From Candidatus Latescibacterota bacterium (GTDB lineage: Bacteria > Latescibacterota > UBA2968 > UBA8231): a DNA stretch of 64,000 nucleotides. The position numbers and the translations under genes were made by a program. The notes below the pieces were generated by a model. That model searched no databases, had not been told where the DNA came from, and saw nothing but the letters and a program-made list of their open reading frames with translations. Position 1 is the first letter of the stretch. Each line of letters opens with the position of its first letter. Below are positions 23,820-46,969 of the stretch, piece by piece. Location: NCBI GenBank assembly GCA_965219385.1, contig CBDCNM010000002.1, positions 2,784,936 to 2,848,935 on the forward strand. Reading direction: 5' to 3'.

Positions 23820-25760
23820 TCACATAAAGGTTATAAAATTCCCGCTCTCCCCCAGCACCCAGTCGACCACCAGCCAGAACCCACCCACGCTGGCCTCCCC
23901 GATGATCAGGCCCAGGAAAAACGGGCGAGCCGCCTTGAAGAGTTGACCCCCGCCGTACTTCAGGATGATCAACTTCAGCAGCCACGACACAAAGATCGAA
24001 AACCACACCCACCCGGTCAGCCAGCCCACGCTGATCACGAACCCCAGGGGGTGCAGTGGCCACCAGTAGAACCGGGTGTGCGCAAACATCAACAACCCCT
24101 CGATCAGGCCCCCGATCCCGGTGAATATAAAACCACGCACATCCGGCTCCGTGGCATTCATGATCGGCGGCACCATATCCGTGAACGGCCGCCGCGGCAG
24201 GCCGGTGGCGAAAAAACGCTGCAGGTTGATGCCTCCGTGGGTGTAGAACAATTCCAGGATGATCCATGTGGCCCCGGCCAGGCTGCACACCAGGGCCACC
24301 ACCATGGCCCAGAACACGATCCGCTTGGATCCCGGAATACGCTCGGCCAGTTTCAAGCTGTTGGCGATGGGGATCATGGGAAAGAGCCGCGTCTCCGACT
24401 GCCAGACATAGGTATAGGTCAGGGCCACCAGGCCCCTGGTGCCGATGATCGAGGTGCCCACCGTGGAAATCACAAAGTAGGCCGCCACCATGGTCACCCG
24501 CGTCGTCGGTACCCCGGCCGTGGCCACCACCCGCGTCATCATGATATAGAAGACCAGACACGCGCCCAGAAACAGCGGCAGCACCACCGGTGGAATGCCC
24601 GTGCTCCACAGCCATAGGGCAATCAGCAGCAGGCTGCAGAGAAAACCCCACAACGTCACCCGGTAGGGCAGCACCTCCTCGGAATCGTCCACCCCGGCAT
24701 TCTTGCGCCAGGTTTTGCGCCACACTTCCCGCAACTGGCCGCGGGCGATCCACAGCCCGTAGAGCACAAAGACCAGACACGCGCCCATGGCCTGGTGGGT
24801 CAGATCCGCGGTCTGGGAAGTCGAATACATGCTCAGCCTTTCGTCGCTGGATATGCCCAGGGTATTGAAGGTTCCCTCCTGGATCTTGCCCAGAAGATAG
24901 AAGAACCAGATGCTGAAGGTGATCTCCAGATTGACCAGGTAGAAAAATCCGATCCAGGCGTAGCTCAGCATCATCGGCCAGTAGACCGTGCCGTTGAAGA
25001 AATAATACCGCCCTATGATAAAGGGCATATCCGGGACAAAGGGGAAGTAGTGGTGCAGTCCCGTCAGACTGAACATGAAAAACGGCACCGCGAACCCTAT
25101 CCACATCACCTTGTTCCTGAACAAAGGCCGGATCCCCCTCAGCCCCTCCTCTTCGGGACCGATCATATGCAGGGGCACCTGGGCCATGGGGTAGGTCAGG
25201 CGCTCGTGGGTGGACCACTGCCGGTGCAGGATGGTGCTCATGCAGATCATCATGAAGCTGAGCACCAGAAAAAACCCGTACCAGTGCGCCAGGGGTTCGG
25301 CCCACACCTCCCAGGGAATGCTCTGCCCTGCGGGCAGGCCCTCGTAGAAGTGTTTGATGGCCTGGTAGTCCTTGGGCACCAGCCAGTCCGGGGTATGGGG
25401 CAGGTAGATCGCCTCCCACTGGTTTTCCGGGGTGGAAAAATAGGAAACCCCGCTGATGACCGTGATCAGGGAAGCGACATAGGGCATGGTGGGCACCGAG
25501 CAGGCCAGCAGCAGCATGATGTAGACCAGCACCAGGTCGGCCCGACCCAGCGCCAGACGCCGGCCGAGCAGGCCCAGCCCCACGTTGATGAACAGGGTAA
25601 AAACAAAGAACAGAAAGATGGCAGCCGGAGAAGAGATGTTCAGGGCCATCATCGAGCCCTGGATCATGAAGATGGCGTAGGGTGCGGCAATGCCGATGAA
25701 CAGGGAAAGCAGGGCTCCGACCAGGAGGCCCTTCAGGGTGAAGGGTGAAGGTGTGGCCAC
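23820..25760 (-). CDS. DUF6785/DUF6784-type polytopic membrane protein (OPT-like putative transporter)
   Basis: ~16 hydrophobic segments; QWSTHERLTYP, WWPLHPLGF, LKYGG, PFFLGLIIG motifs. Confidence 0.75.
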   Translation of the reverse strand: MATPSPFTLKGLLVGALLSLFIGIAAPYAIFMIQGSMMALNISSPAAIFLFFVFTLFINVGLGLLGRRLALGRADLVLVYIMLLLACSVPTMPYVASLITVISGVSYFSTPENQWEAIYLPHTPDWLVPKDYQAIKHFYEGLPAGQSIPWEVWAEPLAHWYGFFLVLSFMMICMSTILHRQWSTHERLTYPMAQVPLHMIGPEEEGLRGIRPLFRNKVMWIGFAVPFFMFSLTGLHHYFPFVPDMPFIIGRYYFFNGTVYWPMMLSYAWIGFFYLVNLEITFSIWFFYLLGKIQEGTFNTLGISSDERLSMYSTSQTADLTHQAMGACLVFVLYGLWIARGQLREVWRKTWRKNAGVDDSEEVLPYRVTLWGFLCSLLLIALWLWSTGIPPVVLPLFLGACLVFYIMMTRVVATAGVPTTRVTMVAAYFVISTVGTSIIGTRGLVALTYTYVWQSETRLFPMIPIANSLKLAERIPGSKRIVFWAMVVALVCSLAGATWIILELFYTHGGINLQRFFATGLPRRPFTDMVPPIMNATEPDVRGFIFTGIGGLIEGLLMFAHTRFYWWPLHPLGFVISVGWLTGWVWFSIFVSWLLKLIILKYGGGQLFKAARPFFLGLIIGEASVGGFWLVVDWVLGESGNFITFM

Positions 25761-29335: not shown

Positions 29336-31894
29336 TCAATACGCCACCGCCACCGTGCGCAGGACCTCTTTGCCCGTGACATCCGCCCCCTCCGTGCTGG
29401 TATCGATCCGCAGCCGCGCACAGTAGATCCCGGGCGGCACTAGCTTGCCGACCGCATTGCGGCCATCCCACGGCATCTCGTAGGCCCCGGTGCTCACCCC
29501 GCGCCGTTCGACCAAACCCTGTACCCAGCGGCCGCTCAGATCGTAAATATCCACCTTGACCGGATTATCGTCGCCCACCCGCACCACCTTAAAGACAAAC
29601 AGCGCCCGGTCGTTGATACCATCCCCATTGGGCGAAAACACCGGGGGTCTCACCGCCACATTGGCAAGCAATTCCCTGCTCTTTATGGACCCCACCAGGG
29701 TGGTGGTATTGCCCTCGACCTGCTCCAAGGCATCCCCCGCGTCCACCCGCTGCCACACCCCATTGCTCCAGGTCCCGTTCTGCACCGCAGCGCGTAGCGG
29801 CGCCCCCGTGGCAAAGAGCGCGGTCCTGAAATCCAGCCGCACCACTTCAATGCCCTCCCCAAAGCCGATTTCCGGAAATTTCAGGTGCAGGCTATCGGAG
29901 CCGGTGGGGATCCGGGTGGCATCCAGCTGCAGGCCGGACGTATCCCCGGGCTCAGCGCCAGTGAAATCCCGTTCCCGGCCCCCGTACAGGGTCGTAAAAT
30001 TCAGCTCCATATCGGGTGGGGCCACCAGCAACAACTGGTCGAAACCCGGATCCCTGCGCCCGAATTTGGGCCGGATGTACAGAGAGAAGGGCCGTTCCGC
30101 TCCCAGGGTGTCGACCTGAAAGGGCACAATTTCGCCGACCAGACTCTGGGCCACGGGCGAGGCAAAATTGAGCCGGATCGACCGCAGTGCGGAACTGGTG
30201 TCCGGATCCGCGGAGATCAGGGTGGCCCGGATCTTGAGGAACTCCCGCGGCGAGGGCGAGGTAATGGGACTCCCGGCGGGATTCCGGTAGGGTTCGCTCC
30301 AGTCGCTCCAGTCGCTGCCCGGCACCTCCAGGGTGTCTATAGCCCCTTTGAAGACCGAAATCAATTTATCGTACTCGGCTTGCGAGACTTCGGTGCCGTC
30401 CTTCTTGAAATAGCGCAAGGCGTGTCCCAATTCATTCCCGGTGCGGGTCTGGAGCACCACCCGGGTTCCTGGTGGCGCCTCCTCTTCCCACTCGATCTCG
30501 AGCAGATTGCGGCTGCCCCCCAGGCGGATCAGGTCCGATGCCAGGGCGACTTCCGGCTGGAATCCTTCCCCGTAGAGCTGGAACTCCGATACCAAAGTTG
30601 AACTCGCGCGGCCCCCTGCCCCGGGAAGGAAGATCCTGAAGAAGCGGGCTTTGAGCGGAGCGAATCTTTCGCCGTCGAAATTGTTGCCTCTCGCATCGTC
30701 GTGAGCCACCGTGGTAGTCCACCGGAGGCTGCCGTCCGGGGCCTGGGAACCATCCGAGAGGTCCACATTGTAGGGTTTAAACCCCCCTCCCCCTCTGCCG
30801 AAGACGATCCGGTAGGAGTCAATCCAGAACAAGGCACCCAGGTCAAAGAACAGTTCGAGATCCTGAGCTCCGTAGTTTATTTGTCGTCCCTTGTCCCGGA
30901 TCCCGTCGGTGAAGGCGGCCAGGCCGAAAGAAGTGGGGGTCATGGATCCCCCCCTCTCGAGCGTGCGGCTGAGTATTTCGTCCCCTTCGCCCCAGACCTC
31001 CAGGCCGGCCAGGCGCGGGCGCTCGCGGCGAAAATAGCGGATGGGCCCTTTCTGGTCCGCGCGCAATTGCTGGTAGATACCCCTTTCTACCGCGACCTCC
31101 CCCCCACCGAGCAGGAGCTTGGTGTACTCGATCGCGCCCCGCTCCGCCGCGGGCAACTTATTGTATGCATCTTCGTCCTCGATTTGCCGGCCCCGATCGA
31201 AATCGCTCCCCCGCACCACCACCTGTACAAACCGCGCCCCCATGGCCCCTACTTCCTGGTCCATCCCCTGCAGATCGATCTCGAAGAGCCGCTGGGTCTT
31301 GTTCGGGTGGAGGGTCCGCAACACGGTCCGGTAAACCAGCTTCTCGAGGTTTCTCGTCGGCGTTGCCCCGTCCGCCACCAGCACGTCGAAGAGCAGGAAG
31401 GGATCCCCTTCCTCTTCCGCGACGAATCGCAGCACGATCTTCCTGGCCAGCACGTAGCGTCCCAGGTCCACGATGAACCACGCCCGCCAGGCCAGCTCGT
31501 CCCCCTCTCCTGCCAGCTCGGGCTCCCAGTAGGTGCTTTTGTCATTGTCCAGGACGTGGGCCACGTCCGCCCGCCTGGAACCGGCCTGGATGGCATCTAT
31601 CAGGGTGATGTCCTCGGGATCCTTTTTCAGGCTCGCGGGTGGAAAGAGCTGAAGGAACGCCACGATATCCGGCACCACATTGATATCCTTGCGCCAGCGG
31701 CGGGGTTGCACCCGACCTGAGGACGAGACTTCTACGGTCCCCGCAGGGAACTCCCAGTTCTGCCAGTGCGTCCGGCCGGAAACCACGACCTGATTGCCAC
31801 TGACGCGATGCCCTCTCCCCTGGGTCCACCCTTCCGAGAGCAAGGCCAGCAATAGCACCATACCTGCCCGATATATCCATCCCATCTTGTCCAT
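29336..31894 (-). CDS. Secreted protein with C-terminal CHU_C/FlgD-Ig-like domain (paralog 1 of 3)
   Basis: Signal peptide; C-terminus FSPNGDGIND...IYDLSGR...WDGRNAVGKLVPPGIY. Confidence 0.75.
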   Translation of the reverse strand: MDKMGWIYRAGMVLLLALLSEGWTQGRGHRVSGNQVVVSGRTHWQNWEFPAGTVEVSSSGRVQPRRWRKDINVVPDIVAFLQLFPPASLKKDPEDITLIDAIQAGSRRADVAHVLDNDKSTYWEPELAGEGDELAWRAWFIVDLGRYVLARKIVLRFVAEEEGDPFLLFDVLVADGATPTRNLEKLVYRTVLRTLHPNKTQRLFEIDLQGMDQEVGAMGARFVQVVVRGSDFDRGRQIEDEDAYNKLPAAERGAIEYTKLLLGGGEVAVERGIYQQLRADQKGPIRYFRRERPRLAGLEVWGEGDEILSRTLERGGSMTPTSFGLAAFTDGIRDKGRQINYGAQDLELFFDLGALFWIDSYRIVFGRGGGGFKPYNVDLSDGSQAPDGSLRWTTTVAHDDARGNNFDGERFAPLKARFFRIFLPGAGGRASSTLVSEFQLYGEGFQPEVALASDLIRLGGSRNLLEIEWEEEAPPGTRVVLQTRTGNELGHALRYFKKDGTEVSQAEYDKLISVFKGAIDTLEVPGSDWSDWSEPYRNPAGSPITSPSPREFLKIRATLISADPDTSSALRSIRLNFASPVAQSLVGEIVPFQVDTLGAERPFSLYIRPKFGRRDPGFDQLLLVAPPDMELNFTTLYGGRERDFTGAEPGDTSGLQLDATRIPTGSDSLHLKFPEIGFGEGIEVVRLDFRTALFATGAPLRAAVQNGTWSNGVWQRVDAGDALEQVEGNTTTLVGSIKSRELLANVAVRPPVFSPNGDGINDRALFVFKVVRVGDDNPVKVDIYDLSGRWVQGLVERRGVSTGAYEMPWDGRNAVGKLVPPGIYCARLRIDTSTEGADVTGKEVLRTVAVAY

Positions 31895-31911: not shown

Positions 31912-33840
31912 TCAGTACACCAGAGAGACCACGCCTTCCCTGCTGGCCCTTTCCTCGTCCGCCTCCACTTCCAGCCTCAGGATGTAGAGCCCCGGCGGCA
32001 GGAGGGCTCCCTGTCCATCCCTGCCGTCCCAGGTGGTGGAAAAACGGCCGCCCGAAGCCCCGTCCCGTCCCGCTTCGCCCAGCTTGCGGCCCGCGAGGTC
32101 GTAGAGCATTACAGCCACCGGCACCGGTCCCGCCAGATTCAACAGGTCGGCCTCGATCCGCACCACATCATTCGTCCCATCCCCATTGGGGGTAAACGCC
32201 CGGGGCCACAGCCGCAGGACCTGGATGGTCTTTTGCCCCACATTGCTCAGGGCCACGCTCAGGGTATTGCTGTCCACCAGTTCGTCCGCATCCCCTGGCG
32301 TCACCCCCTGAGGCACCTCGTGCGGCCGGGTGCTGTCGAATACCCGACCGGAGAACACCGTGCCGAAATTGAAGACCTCGGCCTGGAACACCACCTCGAT
32401 CAATTCCTCTGTCTGCTGCGGATCGATCCGCGGGATCTCCACCTCGAAACCGCCCTCCTCCAAAAGCCTCCAGGCCCAGTCGGATGTCGGCACATCCGTC
32501 CGGCCAAGCCGCAGCGAATCCACGCTTAGCGGCCGCGCCGGCGTGTCCACGACCAGGCGGTCGAATCCCAGATCGTCGCCCCGCATCCGCGGTTTGAGCC
32601 TGTAGGTAAAAGAAGTAACGGCTCCGGCCCGGGCCTGCGCCGGGGTGATCTCGGCCACAACCTGGCTGGCCACCGGCGGGATCGATACCGCGAATTGCAG
32701 AAAGTCCAGCCTCCCGCTGGCCTCTCTGGTGGAGGCGAAATCCGCGCGGAACTGGACGAACTGCCGGGTCTTTGTAGCCTCCATGGCGCCCCTGCTGTCG
32801 GCAAAGTTGTAGGCCGCGGACCAGGATCCCCAGTTCTCGGTGTCGTGGGTAATCCCGGCTCGCTCCGTGGACGACAGCCGCTGGTAGTCCCTCAGGGTGA
32901 GGCGATCGCCGTCCTCGGCAAAGCGGCTACGCTCGCCGCCGCGAAAGGTAAAGCGCCAGTAGTTGTTGGGGTCGTCGTCGCCGCCGCTGCGCATGCTCAG
33001 GCCGACTTGCGCCCCCGGATCCTGCTGCCCGGCCCAGGAGAGCGCCCCCAGGCTGGCCGGCCGGCCCAGGTCGATCACATTGGATACATAGGCGGCCGAG
33101 ACCGCCGATCCAGCGCCAAAGATCTGGAGTTCGGCGATCTCCCAGATCCCGCGGGTGTTCTCGAACCCCTCGAACAGCAGCCGGCGGATGGGCACGGGCG
33201 GCAGTTCCAGCTCCAGCACGGGCCGGGTGTTCTCGCGGATATCGTGGGCAATATCAAAACCTACGGGATGCTGCCCCCCTGTGTAGTACTCCCGCGTGGC
33301 TTCCTTGAGGGGGTCCCCGTCGGTGATCCCGATGAGGAGGCGCTCCATGAAGCGCTCGCTGGCAAATTGTCGGCGCGGGAAAATGCGGAGACGGTCGATG
33401 AAGAAGAGCCCGCCGAAATCGAATATCATGTTCAAGGTCACGTCCCCGCCAACCTGGACAAAGCGGCCATCCCCCAGATAAACCGTGTCCTCGTCCTCGT
33501 CGAACATGGCGAGAAGATCATGGTCCATGGCCGTCACCCAGCCCCCCCTCCAGAGATGGTGGAGCACATCGCCCCCCTGACCCCCGAGCCTCGGGGCCAG
33601 GTTGGTACCCGGATCCAACTGCCGGGGCCGCATGAAATCGGGCCTTATCTCCAGCAACTCGGCCTTGCCGTGCTGGCTCTCGTCCACCGCGGCCCAGTCC
33701 AGGGGCTCGAAACTGAAAGGCGCGTCCAGGTCCGGCTCGGGCAGGTTCTCTCCCCCCATCCGGTATAGGGTGAGGGCTCCGAGCTGCGGCAAACAGGCCA
33801 AAAGGACAGTAAAAACAACAAGGGCCAGACGAAAATCCAT
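31912..33840 (-). CDS. Secreted protein with C-terminal CHU_C/FlgD-Ig-like domain (paralog 2 of 3)
   Basis: Signal peptide; FTPNGDGTND...LYDLAGR...WDGRDGQGALLPPGLY. Confidence 0.75.
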   Translation of the reverse strand: MDFRLALVVFTVLLACLPQLGALTLYRMGGENLPEPDLDAPFSFEPLDWAAVDESQHGKAELLEIRPDFMRPRQLDPGTNLAPRLGGQGGDVLHHLWRGGWVTAMDHDLLAMFDEDEDTVYLGDGRFVQVGGDVTLNMIFDFGGLFFIDRLRIFPRRQFASERFMERLLIGITDGDPLKEATREYYTGGQHPVGFDIAHDIRENTRPVLELELPPVPIRRLLFEGFENTRGIWEIAELQIFGAGSAVSAAYVSNVIDLGRPASLGALSWAGQQDPGAQVGLSMRSGGDDDPNNYWRFTFRGGERSRFAEDGDRLTLRDYQRLSSTERAGITHDTENWGSWSAAYNFADSRGAMEATKTRQFVQFRADFASTREASGRLDFLQFAVSIPPVASQVVAEITPAQARAGAVTSFTYRLKPRMRGDDLGFDRLVVDTPARPLSVDSLRLGRTDVPTSDWAWRLLEEGGFEVEIPRIDPQQTEELIEVVFQAEVFNFGTVFSGRVFDSTRPHEVPQGVTPGDADELVDSNTLSVALSNVGQKTIQVLRLWPRAFTPNGDGTNDVVRIEADLLNLAGPVPVAVMLYDLAGRKLGEAGRDGASGGRFSTTWDGRDGQGALLPPGLYILRLEVEADEERASREGVVSLVY

Positions 33841-33927: not shown

Positions 33928-34836
33928 TTACTTTGCAAAGGATGCCTTGATATGACCCCAGCTGTCGTTTTCGACCGCGGTCGGCAGCCGGTCGAAGTCG
34001 GGCTCGAGGAGAAGCACGTCGGCGTAGTCGGTGGCGTTGTCGTTCATGTTCGCCCCTCCCGCGGTCCACACCAGATAGCTCGCCGCCAATTCCTCGTCGG
34101 TGTCGCCGCCGTCGTTATCGATCCACGCGCCGGCCCAGCCGAAGATCTCGCCGGCCTGGAAATCGTGCAGGGTCCCCGCGTTGGGATCGGCCGGATCAAA
34201 ATCGTCCCAGGCCACCGAGTACCATTCGCTCGTGAGGGTGGTCTCGAGTCCGTGACCGCCATCGAGTTGATAGGCGTCCGGGCAGCAGGTATAGGGCGCC
34301 TTGTCGGCCCAGGTGGTTTCGCTCATCCACATCCACATCCAGCTGCGCGGCGCTATCTCCGGCATGCCCCAGTGGGCGGCCTGTGCGCCGTTGTAGGCCG
34401 GGACATCATCCGATGACCTGAGGCTTTCGGTACCACTGTGATCCGCGTCTATGCCCATCTCGATTTTATCGTTGCCGGCGCAGCACCCGCCGGCAAAGGC
34501 GTCCGACCTCTGGAAGTAGTCGTCGATCCATTCCTGGGCAAAGTAGATGCGGTCCTCCTCGTCGTTCCAGCCTATGGCGAAGCGGAAATTGAAGTCGGCC
34601 AGATCCAATACCGGCTCGTTCCCGGCGGAGGCGCCCCCCCACGTGTCATCGAGGTCGATCCAGTAGTCCTCGGGCAGGACATTCCACTCCGAAAGATCGC
34701 CGTCCAGGGTGGGCAGGTGCGTGCTGGGCCAATTCCACGCCACAAAAGTCACGCCTTCGGGAAGGTGAGCGCTGGCAGAACCGATCATGCCGAGCAGGGC
34801 CACTGCTGTGATGAGGATCAGGGCGGTTCTTTTCAT
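33928..34836 (-). CDS. Acidic secreted protein (DOMON/CBM9-like) with a C-terminal TAVExxSWGxIK tail
   Basis: Signal peptide ending ASA; PTLDGDLSEW, GWNDEEDRIYF, IDADHSG; ends PTAVENDSWGHIKASFAK; RBS gaggag. Confidence 0.7.
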   Translation of the reverse strand: MKRTALILITAVALLGMIGSASAHLPEGVTFVAWNWPSTHLPTLDGDLSEWNVLPEDYWIDLDDTWGGASAGNEPVLDLADFNFRFAIGWNDEEDRIYFAQEWIDDYFQRSDAFAGGCCAGNDKIEMGIDADHSGTESLRSSDDVPAYNGAQAAHWGMPEIAPRSWMWMWMSETTWADKAPYTCCPDAYQLDGGHGLETTLTSEWYSVAWDDFDPADPNAGTLHDFQAGEIFGWAGAWIDNDGGDTDEELAASYLVWTAGGANMNDNATDYADVLLLEPDFDRLPTAVENDSWGHIKASFAK

Positions 34837-34987: not shown

Positions 34988-37930
34988 TTATTCTTTGAGA
35001 CTGGCGAACACAGAGAGAAAAACCAGTCCCGACTTGCGGATATCCCGGTCCCCCTCCACCACCTCGAGGGAGCGCCGGTCGTAGCGCAAACCCAGTTGGG
35101 TGGTGAAGGCGTACCCCACGTACGAACTCCTGTTGCTCAATTGCAGGCCCAGGACCTGGCCGCGGAAATCACCGGTAAAAAGGCCGGGATCCAGGTCTTT
35201 TTCCCTTGCCCTGAGTTCGTAGAAGAAGCGCTGCTCCCAGCCCAGTTGGACATCGGAATTGACTAGCAGGGGAAACTGCACGAAAAAGAAGAAGAGGGCG
35301 TCCCATGAACCTTCCTTCTCCTGAGCCCGGCTGAAGGGGGTTGCGCGCAGGTATTCGCTTTTGAAGCGGGGCGAGAGCGATACCCTGCCCCACAGGTAGG
35401 TATAATTGACCTTGTCGATAAGCCCCACAAACCCCGAGTGCTCGCGGCCGTTGCGCCCGTCCGGTCCCAGGGGATCGAAGGCCACCATGGGCGCGCCCTT
35501 CTCGTCCAGCACAATCCGACCCTCTGCATCCTGGTGAAACTCCACCTGTGTGTCCTGCTGGCGCCAGGTTTCCCACTTGAAGCGGTGCCGGGTGGACCAC
35601 AGCTCCGGACTGGCGTAGTCCCAGTCGGCATAGAAGGTATTGATCCAGGTGTTCTCGCCGGCCAGGAGATCGGGCACGGCCTGGTTGGTGCCGGCCGTCT
35701 CCCCGGCCTGACCAAAGGCCTGCCGGGGCATGATCCACTGGGAAAGCGGGTCGAGGATGGTGTCCTCCACCCTTTTCACCATGTCGAAGACGCGCAGGCG
35801 GCCCCATACTGGATCGTCCTTTGCAAAGGTGAAAATGCCGTAATTGGTGCGGTTGTCGCGGTTGTCCTGGCGTTGCTCCTGGCTCAGGCGCCCCAGGGTC
35901 AGCCGGATCCGGGGATTGACCTGGACCCTGCCGTACAGATTGTAACCCCAGTGGTCTTTCTTGTAAGGATAGTCCGCCAGGTCGTCGTTCTCGAAGCGAT
36001 CCACCCAGGCGTTGTTGTTCAGATCCATGCCAAAGAGGAATTCCGGCCGGTCCGCATGATAGCGCAGGAAGGGTTCGTCGTAGTCGGGGAAAAAGTTGCG
36101 GCGATCCACGTTGCTGTTCTGGTTGAAGTCGGAGATGAAGTCGTGGTTTTCGTCGTACCCGGGGAACACCTCCGGATCGGCCGTCCCCAGGCTGCGGTCG
36201 GAAACCTCCCGGCCCGGGAGGGGGATCAGACTGCCCTGAAAGATGCGCTGCTGGTCGGGGTGGCGGTCGTTGTCGTCGTTGTCGTCGACCAGGTCGTAGG
36301 AGCGGGTAATGGCCTGCGGCGAGTAATCCACTGTCCCGGCGCTGTTCACCGGTCGTATATTGGTGCTGTAGCCATCGTCCATGCCAAAGGCCTCGGCAAA
36401 GAAGTGCCAGGCCCCCCTGCGTTTGGCCAGATTGGCCATCCAGCCGACGGAGCGTTTGTCCCCGGCGATGCCGGCGATGCCCCGGTGCTTCTCCCGCTGG
36501 ATTGCCGGGTACTTGCGGTAGCGGGTGTTGATGTTGAATTCGCCGTAAAAATCAAAGCCGTGGAAGTCGCGGATCTCGGCGCTCAGCCCCTGGATCTGAA
36601 CCGCCGTGGGGAGGCCGTAATCGAAGACCACCTGGCGCTGGTTCAGGCGGTTTTTGATATTGCCCGGGGCCCGCGCCACCTCCAGGAACTGCGGCTGCTC
36701 AACCGCGTTGGTCTGCCGGTCCGAGGCCACCTCCACCCGGTAGTCGCTGCCCAGGACCAGGCGGAAGCGCACATTCGAGACCTGGGCCAGGGCGTCCTCG
36801 GCCTCGGCCAGGGTCAGCCCCAGGTGCTGCTGCAGCAAAAACCGCAGAGTGCCGTCCTCGTCCTCCCCCTCTCCGGGAGCCAGGACGTACTTCAGGGTGA
36901 TGCGCTCGGTCCCGTCCGCACTCAGGAATCCATCCCTCATGGTGCCGCCCTGGCGCACCGGCCCGAAGCCGATATCGCTACCCACGATAACCGTGTCCCG
37001 GGCCACCGTCCGCACGGTGTCCGCCCCGGCGACCTGGCGCACCAGGGTGGTGGTGATTTCCACCTCCTGGGCAAAGAGCACGGCCCCGCCCTGGCCGTCT
37101 TCGGGGGAGTCGTCGCCAAGCCGCACCAGCAGCAGGTCCAGCCGCCTGGCCAGCTGGCCGGAGGTCAACTGGCCCGTGAAGGGATTTTCACCCAAACCGT
37201 CCCGGTTGCCATTGGCATGGTGGGCGTTCACCAGGGTCAGGCCCAGCCTCAGGAAATCCGTCACATCCGCCTCGACCCGGCCCGCGGCCAGGTTGGTGAA
37301 ATTGGCAGCCAGCACCTTTGCCGGCACCCCCTCGGCAATCACGACCTTGGGCCCCGAGATCCTGGAAAACAGGCCCGTAGCCTGGAAGCGGCTGGTTTCC
37401 AGGCTGGTCAAAACCCCGTTGAAGCCGGGCTTGTGGAAGGTCATGGGAGTCAGGGTCGCGTTGATTTCGTCTCCGATCAGGATCGAGTAGCTGTAGTCGC
37501 CGCTGGCATCGGTGGAGATGAGCAGCCGCTGGAACCAGTCCTGGTACTCGGTTTCCTTGGTCACTTCGCCGGCCTCGAAGGTGAGCGGCTGGGTCTGGCG
37601 CCAGTCGTAGATCAGCCACCCCCGGGTGATCAGATTCCCGTACGAGTCGTAGAAATAGGAGCCTTCCTGGTTGGGCTCCAGGTAGCGCAGGTAGCGCTCC
37701 CGGGCGTAGTTGGTGTAGCTCCACTGGCGGCGGCCGTACTCCTGGAACAACTCCTGGGGCAAGTACCAGCGCTGTATGGTCGGGTCCAGGGCGTCTATTT
37801 GCATGGAGGGGCCCGCCGCGGCAAAGACGGTCCGCCCGCCCACGCGCCGGCCCAGGCGGTTGCCGTAATCCACCTGGGCCGCGGCCGTGCCGGCCAGCCC
37901 GAGGATCAGCATTAGAGAGCACACCCTCAT
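34988..37930 (-). CDS. Putative outer-membrane protein, 980 aa (paralog B)
   Basis: ATG 37930 overlaps the upstream TGA; signal peptide MRVCSLMLILGLAGTAAAQ; amphipathic beta-strand patterning in the C-terminal half; Asp/Asn-rich loop. Confidence 0.65.
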   Translation of the reverse strand: MRVCSLMLILGLAGTAAAQVDYGNRLGRRVGGRTVFAAAGPSMQIDALDPTIQRWYLPQELFQEYGRRQWSYTNYARERYLRYLEPNQEGSYFYDSYGNLITRGWLIYDWRQTQPLTFEAGEVTKETEYQDWFQRLLISTDASGDYSYSILIGDEINATLTPMTFHKPGFNGVLTSLETSRFQATGLFSRISGPKVVIAEGVPAKVLAANFTNLAAGRVEADVTDFLRLGLTLVNAHHANGNRDGLGENPFTGQLTSGQLARRLDLLLVRLGDDSPEDGQGGAVLFAQEVEITTTLVRQVAGADTVRTVARDTVIVGSDIGFGPVRQGGTMRDGFLSADGTERITLKYVLAPGEGEDEDGTLRFLLQQHLGLTLAEAEDALAQVSNVRFRLVLGSDYRVEVASDRQTNAVEQPQFLEVARAPGNIKNRLNQRQVVFDYGLPTAVQIQGLSAEIRDFHGFDFYGEFNINTRYRKYPAIQREKHRGIAGIAGDKRSVGWMANLAKRRGAWHFFAEAFGMDDGYSTNIRPVNSAGTVDYSPQAITRSYDLVDDNDDNDRHPDQQRIFQGSLIPLPGREVSDRSLGTADPEVFPGYDENHDFISDFNQNSNVDRRNFFPDYDEPFLRYHADRPEFLFGMDLNNNAWVDRFENDDLADYPYKKDHWGYNLYGRVQVNPRIRLTLGRLSQEQRQDNRDNRTNYGIFTFAKDDPVWGRLRVFDMVKRVEDTILDPLSQWIMPRQAFGQAGETAGTNQAVPDLLAGENTWINTFYADWDYASPELWSTRHRFKWETWRQQDTQVEFHQDAEGRIVLDEKGAPMVAFDPLGPDGRNGREHSGFVGLIDKVNYTYLWGRVSLSPRFKSEYLRATPFSRAQEKEGSWDALFFFFVQFPLLVNSDVQLGWEQRFFYELRAREKDLDPGLFTGDFRGQVLGLQLSNRSSYVGYAFTTQLGLRYDRRSLEVVEGDRDIRKSGLVFLSVFASLKE

Positions 37931-40716
37931 CACTGCACCCCGGCGTAGACCGTGATGAAGCTGACGGCCTCGGTATCGCTCCTGGTATCCCGGTCGAATG
38001 CCCCCGGCTCCACTTCGCGCACCACCTCGGTGCCGATCCGCCCGATGCGCAGGCCGATCTGGGTGGTCAGGCGATACCCCAGGTAGTCCGTGGAATTGGA
38101 GAGCTGCAGGGCCAGATTTCTGGAGCGCAGATCCCCGGTCGGCCCGGTGCTGGCCTGCGCTGCCAGCTCGTCCTCGTCCTGCACCAACTCCCGGAGCCAC
38201 AGCAACTCGACCCCGGCCTGGATCAGGGTGCGCTCGAGTACGGGGAGGTGCCCCAGCAGCTGCGCTGTGCCGCTCCACTCCACGCGTTTATCCCCTCCCT
38301 GCTGGAAGGCCGTCTGGCGCCGGTACTCGCTCTTGAACCTGGGCTGCAGGTCGAGGCGTCCCAGCCCGTACTCATAGTCGAGTTTGTTGATCAGCCCGAC
38401 AAAGCTGGCATTTTCCGCCAGCAGGCGGCCGTCGCTGGCGCGCAGCCCGTCCTGGTTCTGGTGGAAGATTTCGCACTTGAACTTGTTGATCAGGTTGAGG
38501 CGGGGGATGCCCCTGTAGGCGAAGCCGAGATAGGCGGTGTTGATCCAGGTATCCTGGGCCGGCAGCAGGTCCTGCACCAGGGGCCGGGCCACGGCCCCCA
38601 GGATGAAGGCCGTGGACTCGCGGCGGTCATCCGGAATGCTATCCTCGGAGCGTTTGAGCATTTCGAAGGCCTGCAAACGCCCCAGGCCAGGGTAGTCTCT
38701 GTCAAAGGTCAACAGGGCGTAGGTGGTGCGGTTAGCGCGCGCCTCGGACTGCATCTCCTCGTCAATGCGGCCCAGGGTCAGACGCGCTTCCGGCCCTAGG
38801 TGGCCCCCGACAAAGGCATTGTACCCGCGGCGGTCGGTCTTGTAGGGATAGTCGGGCAGGTCGTCGTCTTCGAAGCGGTCGATCCAGTTGTTGTTGTTGG
38901 CGTCAATCCCGAAGAGGAATTCGGGCCGGTCGACCTCGTAGCGCAGGAAGGGCTCCTCATAGTCCGGGATGGCATTGGGCACCGAGGGGGTGTCGTTCTG
39001 GTTGAAGTCCGAGATGAAGTCGTTGTTCTCGTCCCAGCCCGGGAAGACCCGCCCGTCTCGTGACTGGCTGGCGCGCCGCCAGTCCGGGGTGCGGTCTTGG
39101 TCGTCGTTGTCTTCGACGAACTCGTAGAAGTGGCGCTCGTCGTTGTCGTAGAGTACATCCCCGTTGGCGTTGGTCAGAAAGGCGGTGGTGGAATAGTCTT
39201 CGTCGAAGGCATAGACCTCGGCAAAGCCGAACCAGGGGTAGATCCGCCTGGAGAGGTTGAAGTGCCACGCGTCCGCTTGCGCGGAGGAGATCTTGTGGTT
39301 CTCGCCCGCGTTGAAGAGGGCGGCGTTGGGGTACTGGGAATAGCGCTTGTTGCGGTCCCACTCGCCGTAGAAATCAAACCCCAGGAGATCGGTCCCCGCG
39401 ATGGTGAACCCGCCCACCAGGTTGCCGGTGGGCAAGCCGTAATCGAACTGGACCCGCTGCAAATTCGAAATATCCTTCACGTTTCCCGGCGCCTGGCGCA
39501 CCTTCAAAAGCGCAGGCTCGAAATCGTCGATGATTTCAGCACTGAGCGGCGGCGTAGGGATGGGGTTCAATCCGGTCTGCCGGTCCGACCACATCTCTAT
39601 CTTGAAGTCGTTGGCCAGGATATAATCGAACTCCACCTTGACGATGGAGGTCGGGTCCGGGCCGATATAGGCCGGGTCTGCAAAGTCGTAGTTGAGCACG
39701 ATGCGCTCCAGACCGTTGGCCGCCACAAAGCCGCTACGGTCGACCCCGCCGAAGACCACGGGCCACTCGTCGCCCGCCCGCACCACCTCCTGAAGGGCGG
39801 ACATGGTCTCCAGGCCGGTCTCGAAATCCCGGCTGACGATCCGCACATCGTGGCGGAACAGGGCGGCGCCTGCCTCGCCGTCTTCCGGGCTGTCGTCGCT
39901 CAGAATCACGGCAATGGCGTTTGTCGGAGTGCTGCTCTGGCCGGCGGTCAGGCTGCCGGCGATCAAATCGCCGCTGAACAGATCCAGCTCGGTATTGGCG
40001 TGGCGGGCGTCCACCAAGGTGGCTCCTACCTCGATGAAATCCCCCAGCTGGACCACGGCGCGCCCCCCGAACAGGCTGGTGGTATTGGTCCGGACCACCG
40101 GTTCCGGGGTGGAGCTGGAAATGGGTTCGCTGACCCGCGAAGCCAGCACGGTCGCCGCGTACTTATCCGACGTGAAATCCATCTGCACCCCGTTGAATCT
40201 GGGTTTGGAAAAGGTCATGGGGGTGAGGGTAGTGCGCAACTGGGTGCCCACGGTGATGGCGTAGTGGTACTGTCCCTTGGCATCGCCGCCAACGGTGACA
40301 TTGCTGAACCAGGAATTGAAGCGGCCATCCTGGAAGATGCCGCTGCCCAGCTGCTGGGGCTGGTTCTGGCGCCAGTCGTAGATCAACCAGCCGCGGCCGA
40401 TGAAATTGCCGTAGAAATCGTAGAAGTAATCCCCTTCGAGGGTGGTGTTGACGTACCGCTGGTAACGATCTTTAGAGTAGTTGGAGTACTCCCACTGGCG
40501 CCAGGCGTAGTCCTGGTAGAGTTCCTGGGGCACGTACCATTTCTTGACGGTCGGATCCAGGGCCCCGAACATCACGCCGGGACCCCTCGGTTCAAAGCTG
40601 ACCTTGCCCCCGCGCTGAAGCCCCAGGCGATCCCCGTAGTTCTGGCCGTGCCCCAGGCCCCCGCCCCCCCCCAGGCACACCAGTACCACAATGGTAAAAT
40701 TCGCAACCCCTTTCAA
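37930..40716 (-). CDS. Putative outer-membrane protein, 928 aa (paralog A)
   Basis: RBS ggagga with TTG start; signal peptide; colinear with paralog B (YGDRLG, ALDPT, PQEL, GWLIYDWRQ, TLTPMTF, DDSPEDG, FDYGLPT); ends FITVYAGVQ. Confidence 0.65.
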   Translation of the reverse strand: MKGVANFTIVVLVCLGGGGGLGHGQNYGDRLGLQRGGKVSFEPRGPGVMFGALDPTVKKWYVPQELYQDYAWRQWEYSNYSKDRYQRYVNTTLEGDYFYDFYGNFIGRGWLIYDWRQNQPQQLGSGIFQDGRFNSWFSNVTVGGDAKGQYHYAITVGTQLRTTLTPMTFSKPRFNGVQMDFTSDKYAATVLASRVSEPISSSTPEPVVRTNTTSLFGGRAVVQLGDFIEVGATLVDARHANTELDLFSGDLIAGSLTAGQSSTPTNAIAVILSDDSPEDGEAGAALFRHDVRIVSRDFETGLETMSALQEVVRAGDEWPVVFGGVDRSGFVAANGLERIVLNYDFADPAYIGPDPTSIVKVEFDYILANDFKIEMWSDRQTGLNPIPTPPLSAEIIDDFEPALLKVRQAPGNVKDISNLQRVQFDYGLPTGNLVGGFTIAGTDLLGFDFYGEWDRNKRYSQYPNAALFNAGENHKISSAQADAWHFNLSRRIYPWFGFAEVYAFDEDYSTTAFLTNANGDVLYDNDERHFYEFVEDNDDQDRTPDWRRASQSRDGRVFPGWDENNDFISDFNQNDTPSVPNAIPDYEEPFLRYEVDRPEFLFGIDANNNNWIDRFEDDDLPDYPYKTDRRGYNAFVGGHLGPEARLTLGRIDEEMQSEARANRTTYALLTFDRDYPGLGRLQAFEMLKRSEDSIPDDRRESTAFILGAVARPLVQDLLPAQDTWINTAYLGFAYRGIPRLNLINKFKCEIFHQNQDGLRASDGRLLAENASFVGLINKLDYEYGLGRLDLQPRFKSEYRRQTAFQQGGDKRVEWSGTAQLLGHLPVLERTLIQAGVELLWLRELVQDEDELAAQASTGPTGDLRSRNLALQLSNSTDYLGYRLTTQIGLRIGRIGTEVVREVEPGAFDRDTRSDTEAVSFITVYAGVQ

Positions 40717-40733: not shown

Positions 40734-42962
40734 TCAATAAACCACGCCGACCAGCCCCAGGGCGTTTTCCTCTCCCGTCCCGGCTTCGAGCCCAATCCTG
40801 AACACGTACTGTCCCGGCGGCACCACGCGGCCGCTGTCGTCTCTCCCGTCCCAGGGCCGGGCAAAGCGACCGCTTTGATCCCCGTCTTCGTAGAGACGCC
40901 TGACCAGGCGGCCGCTCAGGTCGAAGATATGGATCTTCAGGGGCGTCAAACCCGCGATATTGGTGATGTCGTAGCGCATGAATGACTGGTCGTTGAGACC
41001 GTCTCCATTGGGCGAAAACACCACGGGTTCGGCCCGCACATTGATGAGAAGATCTTTAATCAGGGGCAGGTCCACCGAAAGGTTCTCGGGAATCAAGGTG
41101 CCCGACGGCTGGGTATCTGGATCGTCCACCCCGGCAAAACTCAGGTCCACGGCATTGCCTCCGGCCACGGCCTGCGCCACCGTGGCACTTGCAGCGCTGT
41201 TCAAAGCCCGGCCACTGAAACGGGTAGCAAAGCGCAGCACCGTGCTCCTGAACTCCACGGTAAGAATGGTGCCGTCCTCCTCGATGAGCGGGAACGCCAG
41301 CACGAAACCGTCGTCGCGCACTTCGGTGACGGCAAAGCCGTCGGCGGACGCGGGCAGGCTCTCCGGATCGGCAAAGGAGAAATCGACCTCCCGCACAGTA
41401 CCATCCGGCCTCCTGACCTGGATATGGCCAATGGATGTAACCCGTAGCGGGGTGTCGATCTCGAAGCGGTCGAAGCCCTGGTCCCGTCCGGCCCTGGACT
41501 GATTCAGGACCGCGAATCTAAAGTTCGTCTCCTCTCCCACAGCCGCTGCGCGCGGCAGGATTTCGGCTACGAGCCCCTCGGCGTAGGGAGGGCTTACCAC
41601 GTCGAAGGCCAGGCTGCCGATGCCCGTGGCCGCGTCGAAATCCTGGCTGACAAAATCAATGGCGAACTGGAAGTAGCGCCGGGGTCTGGATTCGACCTCG
41701 ATGGGGATGCCCAAGTCGGCGTCCTCGACCTGTTCCAGGGCGACAATTCCCGCCGCCGGGTACGACGGCGACCAGCCGCTCCAGTTGGTGAGGTCGTCGC
41801 GTATATCCCCTCTGTCCTGCATCCTCAGCTTCTTGTAATCGGCTTCCTCGAGGGTGATGAGGGCCTGCTCTTCGAGCGCCAGTTCCTCGAAGGCCTTGAT
41901 GGCCTCGCTCACTTGGATCTCGCCGTTGTCCAGAGTGGTCTCGATCAAATCCCTGAGCCGGGTATCGTCGACATCCTCGGCCCACTTCCACGGCACCTTC
42001 ACGTCCGGGGTAGGGGTGGGCCGGCCTCCGACGCGGAAAAACTGCTCGGCGGGCGGGCGGATCTTGGTGAACTCCACCGGCTGCGGATCGCGCCCCGTGC
42101 GGCTGCGGATCCGGGCGCTGGAGAAGCCGGATTCGCCCTGCTCTACCTGCACCCAGCGCAGATTCCCCAGCAGGGCCAGATCGCCGAAGTCGAAGATATT
42201 CGACAGGTAGCGCGCCTCGGGCACAAAGCCGGTGCCGAAGACCTGGAACTCGGCGATTTCAAAACCGACCGAGGTCAGCGACCTCAGGCGCACAAAGCGA
42301 ACGTACTGCGGGGGTATGCGGACATCTATCACGGCCTCTTCGTTCTTGTTCTCCAGGACCACGGTACGCCAGATCGGTACTCCCTGGGACTGGTTTTCGG
42401 GGGTGCCGTCGTTGACGAAGATCTCGAACCCTCGCAGGAAGTCGTTCTGGAAGGGGAATTCCGGCGCCGGATAGGCCGGGTCCGCATTGCGCGGAAAAAA
42501 CTTGAAGCGATCGACTCCGAAGCGCGCCCCCAAGTCCATATCGATCTGCAATCCCCTGACCCCGATGCTCCCGCTCCCCACCAGGCCGCGCAAATCCAGG
42601 GCGCTCTTCCCGTCGTCGTCGATGATGCGCCCCAAACCATCCCGAATTTGTATCACATTGGAACCGAGGTCGCCGCCGCGCTCTGCAATCCCCGAGGCGA
42701 TATTGCGGGTCACGTCGGCGCGCTGCGGAAAAATCCAGTTGGGGCGTCCCTCGGGGTTGAAGTCGATGACCCCGCCGAGGGCATTGGTCTGTTCGACGGA
42801 CTGCGCCGTGCGTATCACCACAGCGGGAATGGTGCCTCCCCCGCCCGCCCAGTTGCGCCCCTGGTCCCCGCCCAAGACGATGACTTCCGCCGTACTGAAA
42901 ACAGGGGATAAACCAGGCGCGACACTGCCCGCCAGAACGATCCAAAACAGATGGGGCTTCAT
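40734..42962 (-). CDS. Secreted protein with C-terminal CHU_C/FlgD-Ig-like domain (paralog 3 of 3)
   Basis: Signal peptide MKPHLFWIVLAG...; FSPNGDGLND...IFDLSGRLV...WDGRDDSGRVVPPGQY. Confidence 0.75.
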   Translation of the reverse strand: MKPHLFWIVLAGSVAPGLSPVFSTAEVIVLGGDQGRNWAGGGGTIPAVVIRTAQSVEQTNALGGVIDFNPEGRPNWIFPQRADVTRNIASGIAERGGDLGSNVIQIRDGLGRIIDDDGKSALDLRGLVGSGSIGVRGLQIDMDLGARFGVDRFKFFPRNADPAYPAPEFPFQNDFLRGFEIFVNDGTPENQSQGVPIWRTVVLENKNEEAVIDVRIPPQYVRFVRLRSLTSVGFEIAEFQVFGTGFVPEARYLSNIFDFGDLALLGNLRWVQVEQGESGFSSARIRSRTGRDPQPVEFTKIRPPAEQFFRVGGRPTPTPDVKVPWKWAEDVDDTRLRDLIETTLDNGEIQVSEAIKAFEELALEEQALITLEEADYKKLRMQDRGDIRDDLTNWSGWSPSYPAAGIVALEQVEDADLGIPIEVESRPRRYFQFAIDFVSQDFDAATGIGSLAFDVVSPPYAEGLVAEILPRAAAVGEETNFRFAVLNQSRAGRDQGFDRFEIDTPLRVTSIGHIQVRRPDGTVREVDFSFADPESLPASADGFAVTEVRDDGFVLAFPLIEEDGTILTVEFRSTVLRFATRFSGRALNSAASATVAQAVAGGNAVDLSFAGVDDPDTQPSGTLIPENLSVDLPLIKDLLINVRAEPVVFSPNGDGLNDQSFMRYDITNIAGLTPLKIHIFDLSGRLVRRLYEDGDQSGRFARPWDGRDDSGRVVPPGQYVFRIGLEAGTGEENALGLVGVVY

Positions 42963-43296
42963 CCGTTTTCCACCATACACGTATTGTCAGTACTTGACGA
43001 AATCGGCGGACAGCCGAAAGGGGAATCCCCCACAAAACACCTCCGGCAACATCTCCTTCCGGCCTCGAGCTTGGTGTTCACGTGGTTTCGTTATGCACGG
43101 ATTGCGAAACTTGAAAATTACTCAGCCCTAAAGATTGTGCATCACAAAATTGAAATCAAGTCTTTTCTGAATTGGCAAACCAGAATACAAGGCCGACCTC
43201 GGCCGGGCGAGCGCTTTACTTTTAAAGTGGTTTTTCGTACTGTTTGAAGCTCTGGAATCCCTGCAAACACCTCATCCTTTAGAGGAAGAGTCATCG

Positions 43297-44964
43297 ATGA
43301 AGAAAACCACCCTCGTCCTGCTCGGTTTCCTGCTCGGCTGCGGTCCAACCCAGGACGACCTCGACCCCGTCGTCGCCCAGGTGGGTGATGAGTGGATCAG
43401 GGCCTCTGAGCTGGAGGCCTTTGCCGAGGACATCCCCGATGGCATGAAACAAGGTGGGACTCCCCTGAGGGTCCACCGCAACCTGCTGGAGAGCCTGATC
43501 GACAAGAAACTGCTGCTCGCCGAGGCACGCGCTACAGATACCGAGAACGATCCCTGGTTCATACATAAGATGGAACAAAAGGAAAAAGATCTTCTCATCC
43601 GGCTTTACAGGGTAAAGCACGCCGAAAAATTTCTCATTGACCAAGAAGAGGCGGAAAAGATCTATCGCAAATCCCGCTGGGACCGCGCTCTGCGCTTGGG
43701 GATGATCCTGTTCGAGAACAAAGAACAGGCTCTACAGACCATCGCCGATCTCGAGGCCGGCGCCGACTTCGCGCAGCTGGCCAGGGAGCGCTCCCTGGAC
43801 GAAGAAAGCCGGGAACGCGGCGGCGATGGCGGCACCTACCTGCGCCGGGACCAGATCGAGCCGATTGCCGACCGCATCTTCCACCTGAGTGTGGGCGAGA
43901 TCTCCGCTCCGCTCCCCAAACTCCACAACCAGGAAAAACGCCATGCCGTGCTAAAGATCCTGGATGAGATCCCGGTGCCCTTCGAGGTGGCTGCCCCCGC
44001 CGTCCACAAAGCCCTGATCACCCGCAAAAAAGAGCAGCAATTGAAAACCGTGATCGACTCGCTGAAAGCAAGCTACGCCCTCCGGATACACCACGAAGCG
44101 ATTCAACTATTGATCCGGCTGAACCAGGATTCCGCCACAGACATCTTCGAACTGCCCGAGCCCGAGGCCAGCCGTCCCCTGTGCACCTACAAGGGCGGCC
44201 AGATCACCTTGGACGATCTGCTCCAGGACGCCCGGGCACTCCAGCTGGGACGCCCGGCCCTGAACGACAGCCTGATCGTTTTGGGCCTGCTCAACGAAAC
44301 CGTCATTGCCAGACACCTCTTCCTGGCGGAGGCCCGGGTCCAGGGTCTCGACCAGGACCCCGGTCTGCTGGAAACCCTGGCCAGGGCAAAAGAGGAATTC
44401 CTCCTGGACGCCCTGCGCCGGCGCGAGGTGGACCAGCACGTGGAAGCCTCCGAGGAAGAAATGCGCGAATTTTACGAGGCCCATCCCGAAAAATTCACCG
44501 ACCCCGAAACCACCATAATCGCCGAGATCCTGGTGAAAACCGATTCCCTGGCCTGGCGCCTCAAGACGGCCCTGGAGCAAGGCGCCGACGCCGCCCAGCT
44601 GGCGCGCGAGCATTCCCGGCGCACGGGACTGGCCCACCACCACGACGGCGAGATTCGCCTCAACCTCTACACCAAGGGGTTTTTCCCAGATGTGTACCAG
44701 GCCGTGCAGCAACTAGAGGTCGGGGATATAGGGGGTCCAGTCAAGGTCCGTGAGGGGTATTCAGTGTTCAAGCTCCTGGATCGGGTAGCGAGAAAGAATC
44801 CCTACGACAAAGAATCCCGGCGCCGGGCCAGAGCCTATGTGAGGATCGACAAGAGCAAAAGAGACTACGTGAGCTATGTGCGCGGTCTGCGCGACAAGTA
44901 CCCGGTTGCCATCTTCGACGAAAAGCTGGAAATGGTGATCCGCACCGCTGCTCCTTCAGGGTGA
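43297..44964 (+). CDS. Parvulin-type peptidyl-prolyl isomerase/chaperone lipoprotein (SurA/PrsA-like, two PPIase domains)
   Basis: Lipobox LLGC; VVAQVGDEWI, LESLIDKKLL; ADFAQLARERSLD..GGDGG, VGEISAP; second unit AAQLAREHS, VGDIGGPV..GYSVFK. Confidence 0.88.
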   Translation: MKKTTLVLLGFLLGCGPTQDDLDPVVAQVGDEWIRASELEAFAEDIPDGMKQGGTPLRVHRNLLESLIDKKLLLAEARATDTENDPWFIHKMEQKEKDLLIRLYRVKHAEKFLIDQEEAEKIYRKSRWDRALRLGMILFENKEQALQTIADLEAGADFAQLARERSLDEESRERGGDGGTYLRRDQIEPIADRIFHLSVGEISAPLPKLHNQEKRHAVLKILDEIPVPFEVAAPAVHKALITRKKEQQLKTVIDSLKASYALRIHHEAIQLLIRLNQDSATDIFELPEPEASRPLCTYKGGQITLDDLLQDARALQLGRPALNDSLIVLGLLNETVIARHLFLAEARVQGLDQDPGLLETLARAKEEFLLDALRRREVDQHVEASEEEMREFYEAHPEKFTDPETTIIAEILVKTDSLAWRLKTALEQGADAAQLAREHSRRTGLAHHHDGEIRLNLYTKGFFPDVYQAVQQLEVGDIGGPVKVREGYSVFKLLDRVARKNPYDKESRRRARAYVRIDKSKRDYVSYVRGLRDKYPVAIFDEKLEMVIRTAAPSG

Positions 44965-46857: not shown

Positions 46858-46969
46858 TTGTCCAGAGTATTTCTCCCTTGAGTACAGGTAGGGCCAATCG
46901 TATCTTAGCGTCCTGGAAATATACCGCCATTACATGCAATACGACCGCACGCTCCCTGGAAAGAAAAGC

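Follow-up and report, generated by a model that had tools for sequence, protein, structure and literature searches.

What is the role of two very large, adjacent and mutually related genes whose products match no named protein family? This question is raised by a 64,000-nucleotide stretch of the genome of an uncultured, marine-type Candidatus Latescibacterota bacterium (contig CBDCNM010000002.1, positions 2,784,936 to 2,848,935; here called the window), in which the genes A and B lie in tandem on the minus strand. The genome is 5.8 Mb in size and 94% complete. Both proteins are predicted to be whole outer-membrane barrels of ~24 strands, and the pair belongs to a larger, repeated cassette with genes for secreted proteins, a context which an earlier, sequence-only reading of the window had missed. 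We tentatively favor the interpretation that A and B combine into a heteromeric platform that docks lectin-like proteins exported by a type IX secretion system (T9SS) and serves as a gated import pore.

Two large paralogous predicted barrels and their outer domains

Barrel A (37930..40716, minus strand, 928 residues) starts with TTG behind a GGAGG motif, and barrel B (34988..37930, minus strand, 980 residues) starts with ATG inside a TGATG stop/start overlap of the two genes at 37928..37932. This overlap is present as the sequence-only reading had reported, both genes are intact, and the nine shared sequence blocks and both C-terminal strings were each located in A and B where that reading had placed them. 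An independent DNA run spans A and B, and the differences listed are substitutions only, with no insertions or deletions. The two proteins align over their whole length in BLASTP (39% identity, 1003 columns, 610 bits) and are ancient paralogues. A carries a likely signal peptide; a hydrophobic N-terminal helix is present in the models of both proteins, the signal peptide having been judged by eye.

The AlphaFold2 models of A (pLDDT, the predicted local distance difference test, 71.8; predicted TM-score 0.70; 92 close sequences) and of B (pLDDT 84.2; predicted TM-score 0.82; 80 diverse sequences) predict the same architecture, that of an outer-membrane barrel, with 24 wall strands in A by a DSSP count made without inspecting coordinates or closure. 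The expectation of an outer-membrane barrel is thus supported by two independent models, and all top fold matches are barrels. A single barrel built from two chains, as the sequence-only reading had put it, is not supported in the literal sense because each chain is modeled as a complete barrel by itself. Residues ~19 to 95 have pLDDT values below 50 in both models, though they are well conserved in the A/B clade, and the corresponding conserved segment of A (residues 26-104; 40405..40641, minus strand) might be a plug or a partner interface.

In the model of A, long loops follow the odd strands and short turns the even strands. A 186-residue insert after strand 7 and a 124-residue acidic loop after strand 11 both lie on the long-loop side, the presumed outer face. 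The insert domain of A (residues ~243-430; 39427..39990, minus strand) is beta-rich and contains a DDSPEDG motif, that of B (36605..37207, minus strand) is enlarged in this sub-lineage by an additional helical hairpin, and both are predicted to be beta-sandwiches. A stand-alone copy of the barrel outer insert is found elsewhere in the genome as a 253-residue, secreted-looking protein with an SWGxIK-type tail (L008:8135-8896; G000:C2:3410135-3410896).

The acidic loop of A (residues 528-630; 38827..39135, minus strand) contains repeated D/N-x-D/N-x-D/N motifs. That of B (35948..36307, minus strand) is 17 residues longer and is modeled at moderate-to-high confidence with almost no regular secondary structure, its helical turns being of 3 residues only. 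In an alignment of 146 rows this block is the best-conserved region of the proteins, with 30 of 99 columns at least 90% conserved versus 14 of 300 in the C-terminal part of the barrel. EF-hand or thrombospondin type-3-like calcium loops had been proposed here, and of these only acidic motifs resembling thrombospondin type-3 find support, most clearly in the distant clade. A 12-residue EF-loop pattern fits 88 of the 146 rows and is missing from B, the full 13-position pattern fits none of the 146, and no helices flank the loop in the models, so that a true EF-hand is not supported. Thrombospondin type-3 calcium repeats are tandem DxDxDGxxD-type motifs without secondary structure. In the distant clade of the family the loop reads VDDNDDxDxxPD, GVFPGLDxDxDGxPD, NxNxxPDYxEPF and GxDxNNNGxxDxRENDxxPDYPY, so that tandem LDxDxDGxPD and NxNxxPD motifs likewise occur without regular secondary structure; unlike the thrombospondin repeats they are set in an outer loop of a barrel, and they have no Pfam or PDB sequence match. 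From these motifs, the acidic loop likely binds Ca2+.

The sequence-only reading had recognized no characterized family, and database searches agree. Pfam and NCBIfam gave no match for A and B, nor did Pfam for 12 paralogues from the genome or NCBIfam for 27 relatives, and PDB sequences gave chance-level matches only with A and with the profiles A3, A6, A7 and A8 as queries. The nearest ESM Atlas clusters, at 0.99, are all unnamed, DUF6029 (0.89, 160 shared features) counts as no more than a lead, and the outer insert alone retrieved nothing there. The top Foldseek match for both models is the Deinococcus protein SlpA (E about 5e-8, TM-score 0.23-0.26), while VIA-align returned generic barrels (Z 9-14) with none standing out, and root-mean-square deviations in the fold searches were 4-14 A. 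No published description of the family was found in the literature on Latescibacter, T9SS, FlgD, outer-membrane beta-barrels and DUF6785, with subscription journals and supplements outside the search. In tests for membership of PorP/SprF, TonB-dependent transporters, ushers/Omp85, SlpA or EF-hands, the family fell short of the defining features; by analogy, it would work most like PorP/SprF and TonB-dependent transporters.

Range, pairing and the repeated cassette

Among 7996 candidates scored, 1115 were relatives of A, and the family profile covers 943 representatives at 50% clustering. Named relatives come from Latescibacterota or from metagenome-assembled genomes labeled Gemmatimonadetes, which we infer to belong to the same lineage. 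The barrels were present in 94 of 151 sampled genomes of the phylum, including 63 of 63 in the taxonomic family of the window genome; none of the 51 from three other families had them. L053, a 2.4-kb contig from a Myxococcales bin, is not counted as evidence of range. The window genome itself encodes 20 full-length paralogues at 10 loci, comprising three A/B pairs, five singles and nine members of the distant clade (~25% identity). A family of 20 genes of ~2.8 kb in one genome, found in every sampled genome of a taxonomic family, is yet without name, profile or structure.

In a FastTree phylogeny (67 representatives of 160 full-length open reading frames (ORFs), 880 columns, midpoint root), first genes (A) and second genes (B) form separate clades with support of 1.0 each and matching sub-lineages, and the singles fall outside. 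Of 80 loci picked by similarity to A, 66 center on an A-type gene (3 of these cut by contig ends) and 14 on singles. B lies downstream of 61 of the 63 evaluable A genes. In the reverse test A is directly upstream in 25 of 29 B-centered loci; a SurA-like gene takes this position in the other four, with A listed further up in three of these. These counts come from related genomes and not from independent samples. Fixed order, mirrored clades and the pairing counts together indicate that the A/B pair is old and has been kept as a unit. A partnership of A and B is likely on these grounds, and strict co-inheritance makes a 1:1 complex of two barrels plausible, in line with the heterodimer that the sequence-only reading had suggested. 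Its further suggestion of translational coupling fits the TGATG overlap of the window pair and is not an obligatory feature elsewhere: of 60 full pairs, 50 are adjacent (in 41 of which B starts within ~11 nucleotides of the A stop, four starts being read by eye) and 10 have a SurA-like gene between A and B. Mirror-distance correlations across 59 loci are high (A-B 0.98, A-cargo 0.97, B-cargo 0.97), but these reflect shared descent and are not used as evidence of contact.

The cassette in the window has the order cargo 1, A, B, CBM9-like protein, cargo 2, cargo 3, together with a divergent gene for a peptidyl-prolyl isomerase. Cargo 1 (40734..42980, minus strand, 748 residues) ends 17 nucleotides upstream of A and carries a CHU_C/FlgD-Ig tail ending in VVY; its paralogue cargo 2 (31912..33840, minus strand, 642 residues) has a CHU_C/FlgD-Ig tail as well, and cargo 3 (29336..31894, minus strand, 852 residues) combines an F5/8 (discoidin)-like domain with a CHU_C tail. 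Against CHU_C these tails reach the cut-off or barely exceed it, and against TIGR04131 they stay under it. The secreted CBM9-like protein (33928..34836, minus strand, 302 residues; profile against 1i82, E 2.2e-6) ends in a short SWGxIK tail. The isomerase (43297..44964, plus strand) is SurA/PrsA-like, likely a lipoprotein chaperone, and recurs in the cassettes; six of the seven SurA-like genes in the genome lie within 10 kb of a barrel. In one RNA run (share 0.05), the matches listed include short contigs of low depth and near-identical sequence that fall on B, the CBM9-like gene, two cargoes and the isomerase and may be DNA carry-over. Promoter and terminator scans were at chance level.

Linkage between barrels and cargoes extends beyond the window. 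A gene with a C-terminal domain (CTD) of this type lies directly upstream of the barrel in 73 of 74 related loci with flanking sequence, five more loci having no upstream sequence. A tail profile built from 19 barrel neighbors matches 93 ORFs of the window genome, with two weak ENY-ending matches set aside. VxY-type tails occur on 29 of the 93, and 26 of these 29 (7 of 10 among those outside the training set) lie within 10 kb of a barrel, in zones that make up 4.8% of the genome. The other CTD-like genes are within this distance in 5 of 62 cases, and one of the 62, 32 kb away, looks like a truncated VxY type. The SWGxIK-type motif (AVE..[ST]WG.IK), probably a minimal sorting tail, is found at the C-terminus of 55 ORFs of the genome, including the CBM9-like protein, and 17 of these are within 10 kb of barrels; near-identical copies form tandem arrays at L003 and L004.

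Export of such proteins would be served by the SprA, PorU and three PorV matches found above cut-off in the window genome, in which three divergent PorV/PorP-like genes also exist; GldM and GldN were not detected there, and their controls were silent too. SprA_N occurs in 143 of 151 genomes of the phylum, families without the barrel included, and in 88 of 94 barrel-positive genomes. One paper calls T9SS exclusive to Bacteroidota, whereas SprA_N is near-universal in this sampled phylum. At 9 kb from B lies a gene for a DUF6785+DUF6784 membrane protein with ~14 hydrophobic segments (23820..25760, minus strand), a family enriched near barrel loci: of 27 such ORFs in the genome, a few of them fragments or overlapping, 9 have a barrel within 10 kb, and 18 have one within 15 kb, a zone of 6.6% of the genome.

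A proposed docking and import platform and its competitors

PMC9143113 describes PorP/SprF proteins as barrels of 14 strands to which type B CTD cargo binds, and according to PMC12618676 such a gene is commonly the next one downstream of the cargo gene, as in sprB-sprF. The barrel genes described here likewise come immediately after the gene of a cargo whose tail is CHU_C/TIGR04131-like, with SprA, PorU and PorV in the genome. As this gene order copies the cargo-then-barrel rule, docking of VxY-tailed proteins is the best-supported inference. In contrast to PorP/SprF, which are FadL-family barrels, the proteins are ~930-980 residues long with ~24 strands instead of 14, lack matches to PF11751 and TIGR03519, occur in fixed pairs, and bear a large outer insert and an acidic loop, in a genome in which the Gld components named above escaped detection.

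An import function is suggested by other features. SusC/SusD utilisomes and TonB-dependent transporters combine a large barrel of 22 strands with cognate surface binding proteins. Similar features here are the large predicted barrel, putative surface binding proteins, many paralogous loci, ExbB/ExbD at some of these, and a possible dimer. Points of difference are the missing Plug-family domain, ~24 rather than 22 strands, and T9SS-like tails on the partners instead of lipid anchors, and the fold similarity is generic only. The F5/8 and CBM9-like domains and a barrel far wider than the 14 strands of PorP/SprF count for import over mere anchoring, as does the enrichment of DUF6785.

Genes for a possible energy source are found with the distant clade, in which a group of two to four barrels precedes a tetratricopeptide repeat (TPR) protein of ~1080-1180 residues, often with ExbB, ExbD, DUF4159 and a 260-residue lipoprotein as well. 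TPR-ExbB(-ExbD) genes stand downstream of distant paralogues in the window genome and in G006 and G015. The last of these (96% complete, 60 contigs) has cargo, three barrels, TPR, ExbB, two ExbD and PorV at G015:C14 (L099, L100), and no SprA match was found in it by family or by protein query. At L006, L103 and L110, a PorV/PorP-like barrel of 290-400 residues is encoded between the cargo and the giant barrel; searches of A/B and single loci turned up no gene of this kind.

According to the dock-and-import reading, A and B would stand side by side as a two-subunit surface platform that docks the lectin-like secreted proteins of the cassette and probably imports what these capture. The cargoes would exit via the SprA/PorV/PorU-type translocon and bind the platform through the VxY-ending tail, and the SurA-like lipoprotein would act as chaperone of the barrels. 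Ca2+ would rigidify the acidic outer loop, while the conserved N-terminal segment, the acidic loop or both could gate the lumen. Solutes might then reach the membrane protein of the DUF6785 family, the TPR-ExbB-ExbD sets beside distant paralogues would provide energy in trans, and the singles would be homo-oligomeric or monomeric versions of the same device.

Several observations weigh against this reading. Cassette linkage by itself is no proof of binding, and three VxY genes and one truncated look-alike lie at least 32 kb from any barrel, just as distant-clade barrels in G003 and at two G006 loci stand without a CTD neighbor. Pairing is not required by the family, given the five singles in the window genome and the 14 of 80 related loci without B, and two A genes (L059 and L076, one record, with 2.1-3.5 kb of sequence downstream) have no B. 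A and B gave no match to Plug (PF07715) or to a TonB-receptor domain, and their N-terminal segment has only ~80 residues; the genome keeps 24 ordinary TonB-receptor plug matches. No TPR or ExbB/ExbD genes were found in cis at the A/B or single loci examined, and at L113 a TPR-ExbB-ExbD set accompanies a small PorV-like barrel with the giant barrel lacking, so that the motor need not serve giant barrels. DUF6785 is without a solved relative or a known function.

The strongest competitor, which we consider unlikely, omits import. The barrels would act as the PorP/SprF of type-B-like cargo, taking it from SprA and displaying it as an adhesin. The cargo-then-barrel order and the weak likeness of the tails to CHU_C and TIGR04131 favor this, as do the absence of a PorP-like gene from the A/B and single clade-1 loci searched and the presence of SprA_N in most barrel-positive genomes. 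The last point says little, since SprA is near-universal in the sample. Stoichiometry also fits poorly, with three cargoes per two barrels, or per one, and some barrels without a cargo neighbor. As the width of the barrels, the small PorV/PorP-like barrels that coexist with them in distant-clade loci, the lectin-like domains, the 14-helix membrane proteins and the motor genes are unexplained by a pure shuttle, a dock combined with an import pore is favored. A dedicated export pore, in which the barrels themselves would translocate the adjoining cargo in the manner of an usher or a two-partner transporter, is improbable. Fimbrial ushers are barrels of 24 strands, a width equal to that predicted here, and the dedicated chaperone gene, the tight cargo linkage and the gene set of G015 without an SprA match point the same way. 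However, no usher plug or terminal domain and no POTRA domain was matched by profile in A or B, the fold matches to FimD/PapC and to Omp85 (a 16-strand barrel) are generic (root-mean-square deviations of 6-13 A), the tails resemble T9SS signals, and G015 is one genome of 60 contigs that has PorV.

We regard as very improbable an envelope scaffold related to SlpA, that is, a metal-stabilized lattice of oligomeric barrels holding a surface coat. SlpA (8ae1, 7zgx) is likewise a very large barrel and, according to PMC9388160, has acidic metal-binding insertions and a possible scaffold role. Besides its first rank in Foldseek, SlpA_C appears below cut-off in 8 of 30 scanned members and, as a precomputed match, in 38 of 120 distant members listed. 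These matches span only 70-100 residues, the TM-score is about 0.25, the family profiles did not retrieve SlpA among PDB sequences, and the SLH domain, coiled-coil stalk and 30-strand barrel, a trimer, that mark SlpA/OmpM-like proteins are missing here, where ~24 strands are predicted; twenty paralogues with transporter-like neighbors would also fit a scaffold poorly. The likeness to SlpA is thus a lead only. Apart from these readings, A and B might be co-regulated yet physically independent barrels, each for different cargoes or solutes. Each folds alone in the models, the family has singles, the A and B sets differ by fixed residues in only 8 columns, and an operon by itself can hold two genes together; against this, order and pairing have persisted across several duplications of the cassette that left hardly any lone copy, and the conserved low-pLDDT N-terminal segment looks like an interface. 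We consider independence possible but rather unlikely.

A bolder extension of the dock-and-import reading, which we regard as doubtful, would make the system a second, separately evolved utilisome, with hetero-oligomeric, calcium-gated barrels of 24 strands, a dedicated T9SS tail replacing the lipid anchor, ExbB/ExbD with a giant arm of TPR that opens the barrels in place of TonB, and DUF6785, fed by the barrels, as a new family of inner-membrane permeases. The barrel family would show how T9SS is used beyond Bacteroidota, in a setting that yielded no Gld motor (controls silent), supply a further size class of barrels with a calcium-type loop, and provide DUF6785 and the VxY and SWGxIK tails with testable roles. 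The A/B pair would in addition be a clean natural case of a possible transition from homo- to hetero-oligomer.

Further genes in and around the cassettes

The operon at L113:5874-14625 encodes a CBM9-like protein, a lipoprotein, a PorV/PorP-like barrel, a 1084-residue TPR protein, ExbB, ExbD and DUF4159, and a lone PorV/PorP-like gene at L115:9935-11014 is near-identical to that of L113. VxY-tailed genes at L095:10632-16954 and L096:10343-12550 have no nearby barrel, the latter being close to a DUF6785 gene. Two proteins of ~1150 residues ending in QQFLENY (G000:C2:2653057-2656575 and 1489742-1493164), each beside an extra PorV-family match, possibly represent another class of tail and shuttle.

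A 580-residue TPR membrane protein is encoded between B and the CBM9-like gene at L014:15801-17546 and at equivalent positions in close relatives; the gap there in the window is only 151 bp. Three FG-GAP/ASPIC-UnbV-type proteins (26567-28294, 45007-46857 and 48551-50299) flank the cassette in the window, and 11 of 25 such ORFs in the genome lie within 15 kb of a barrel. The window also encodes, at 46934-48547, a pentapeptide-repeat protein of 537 residues with a C-terminal two-helix, ion-channel-like domain.

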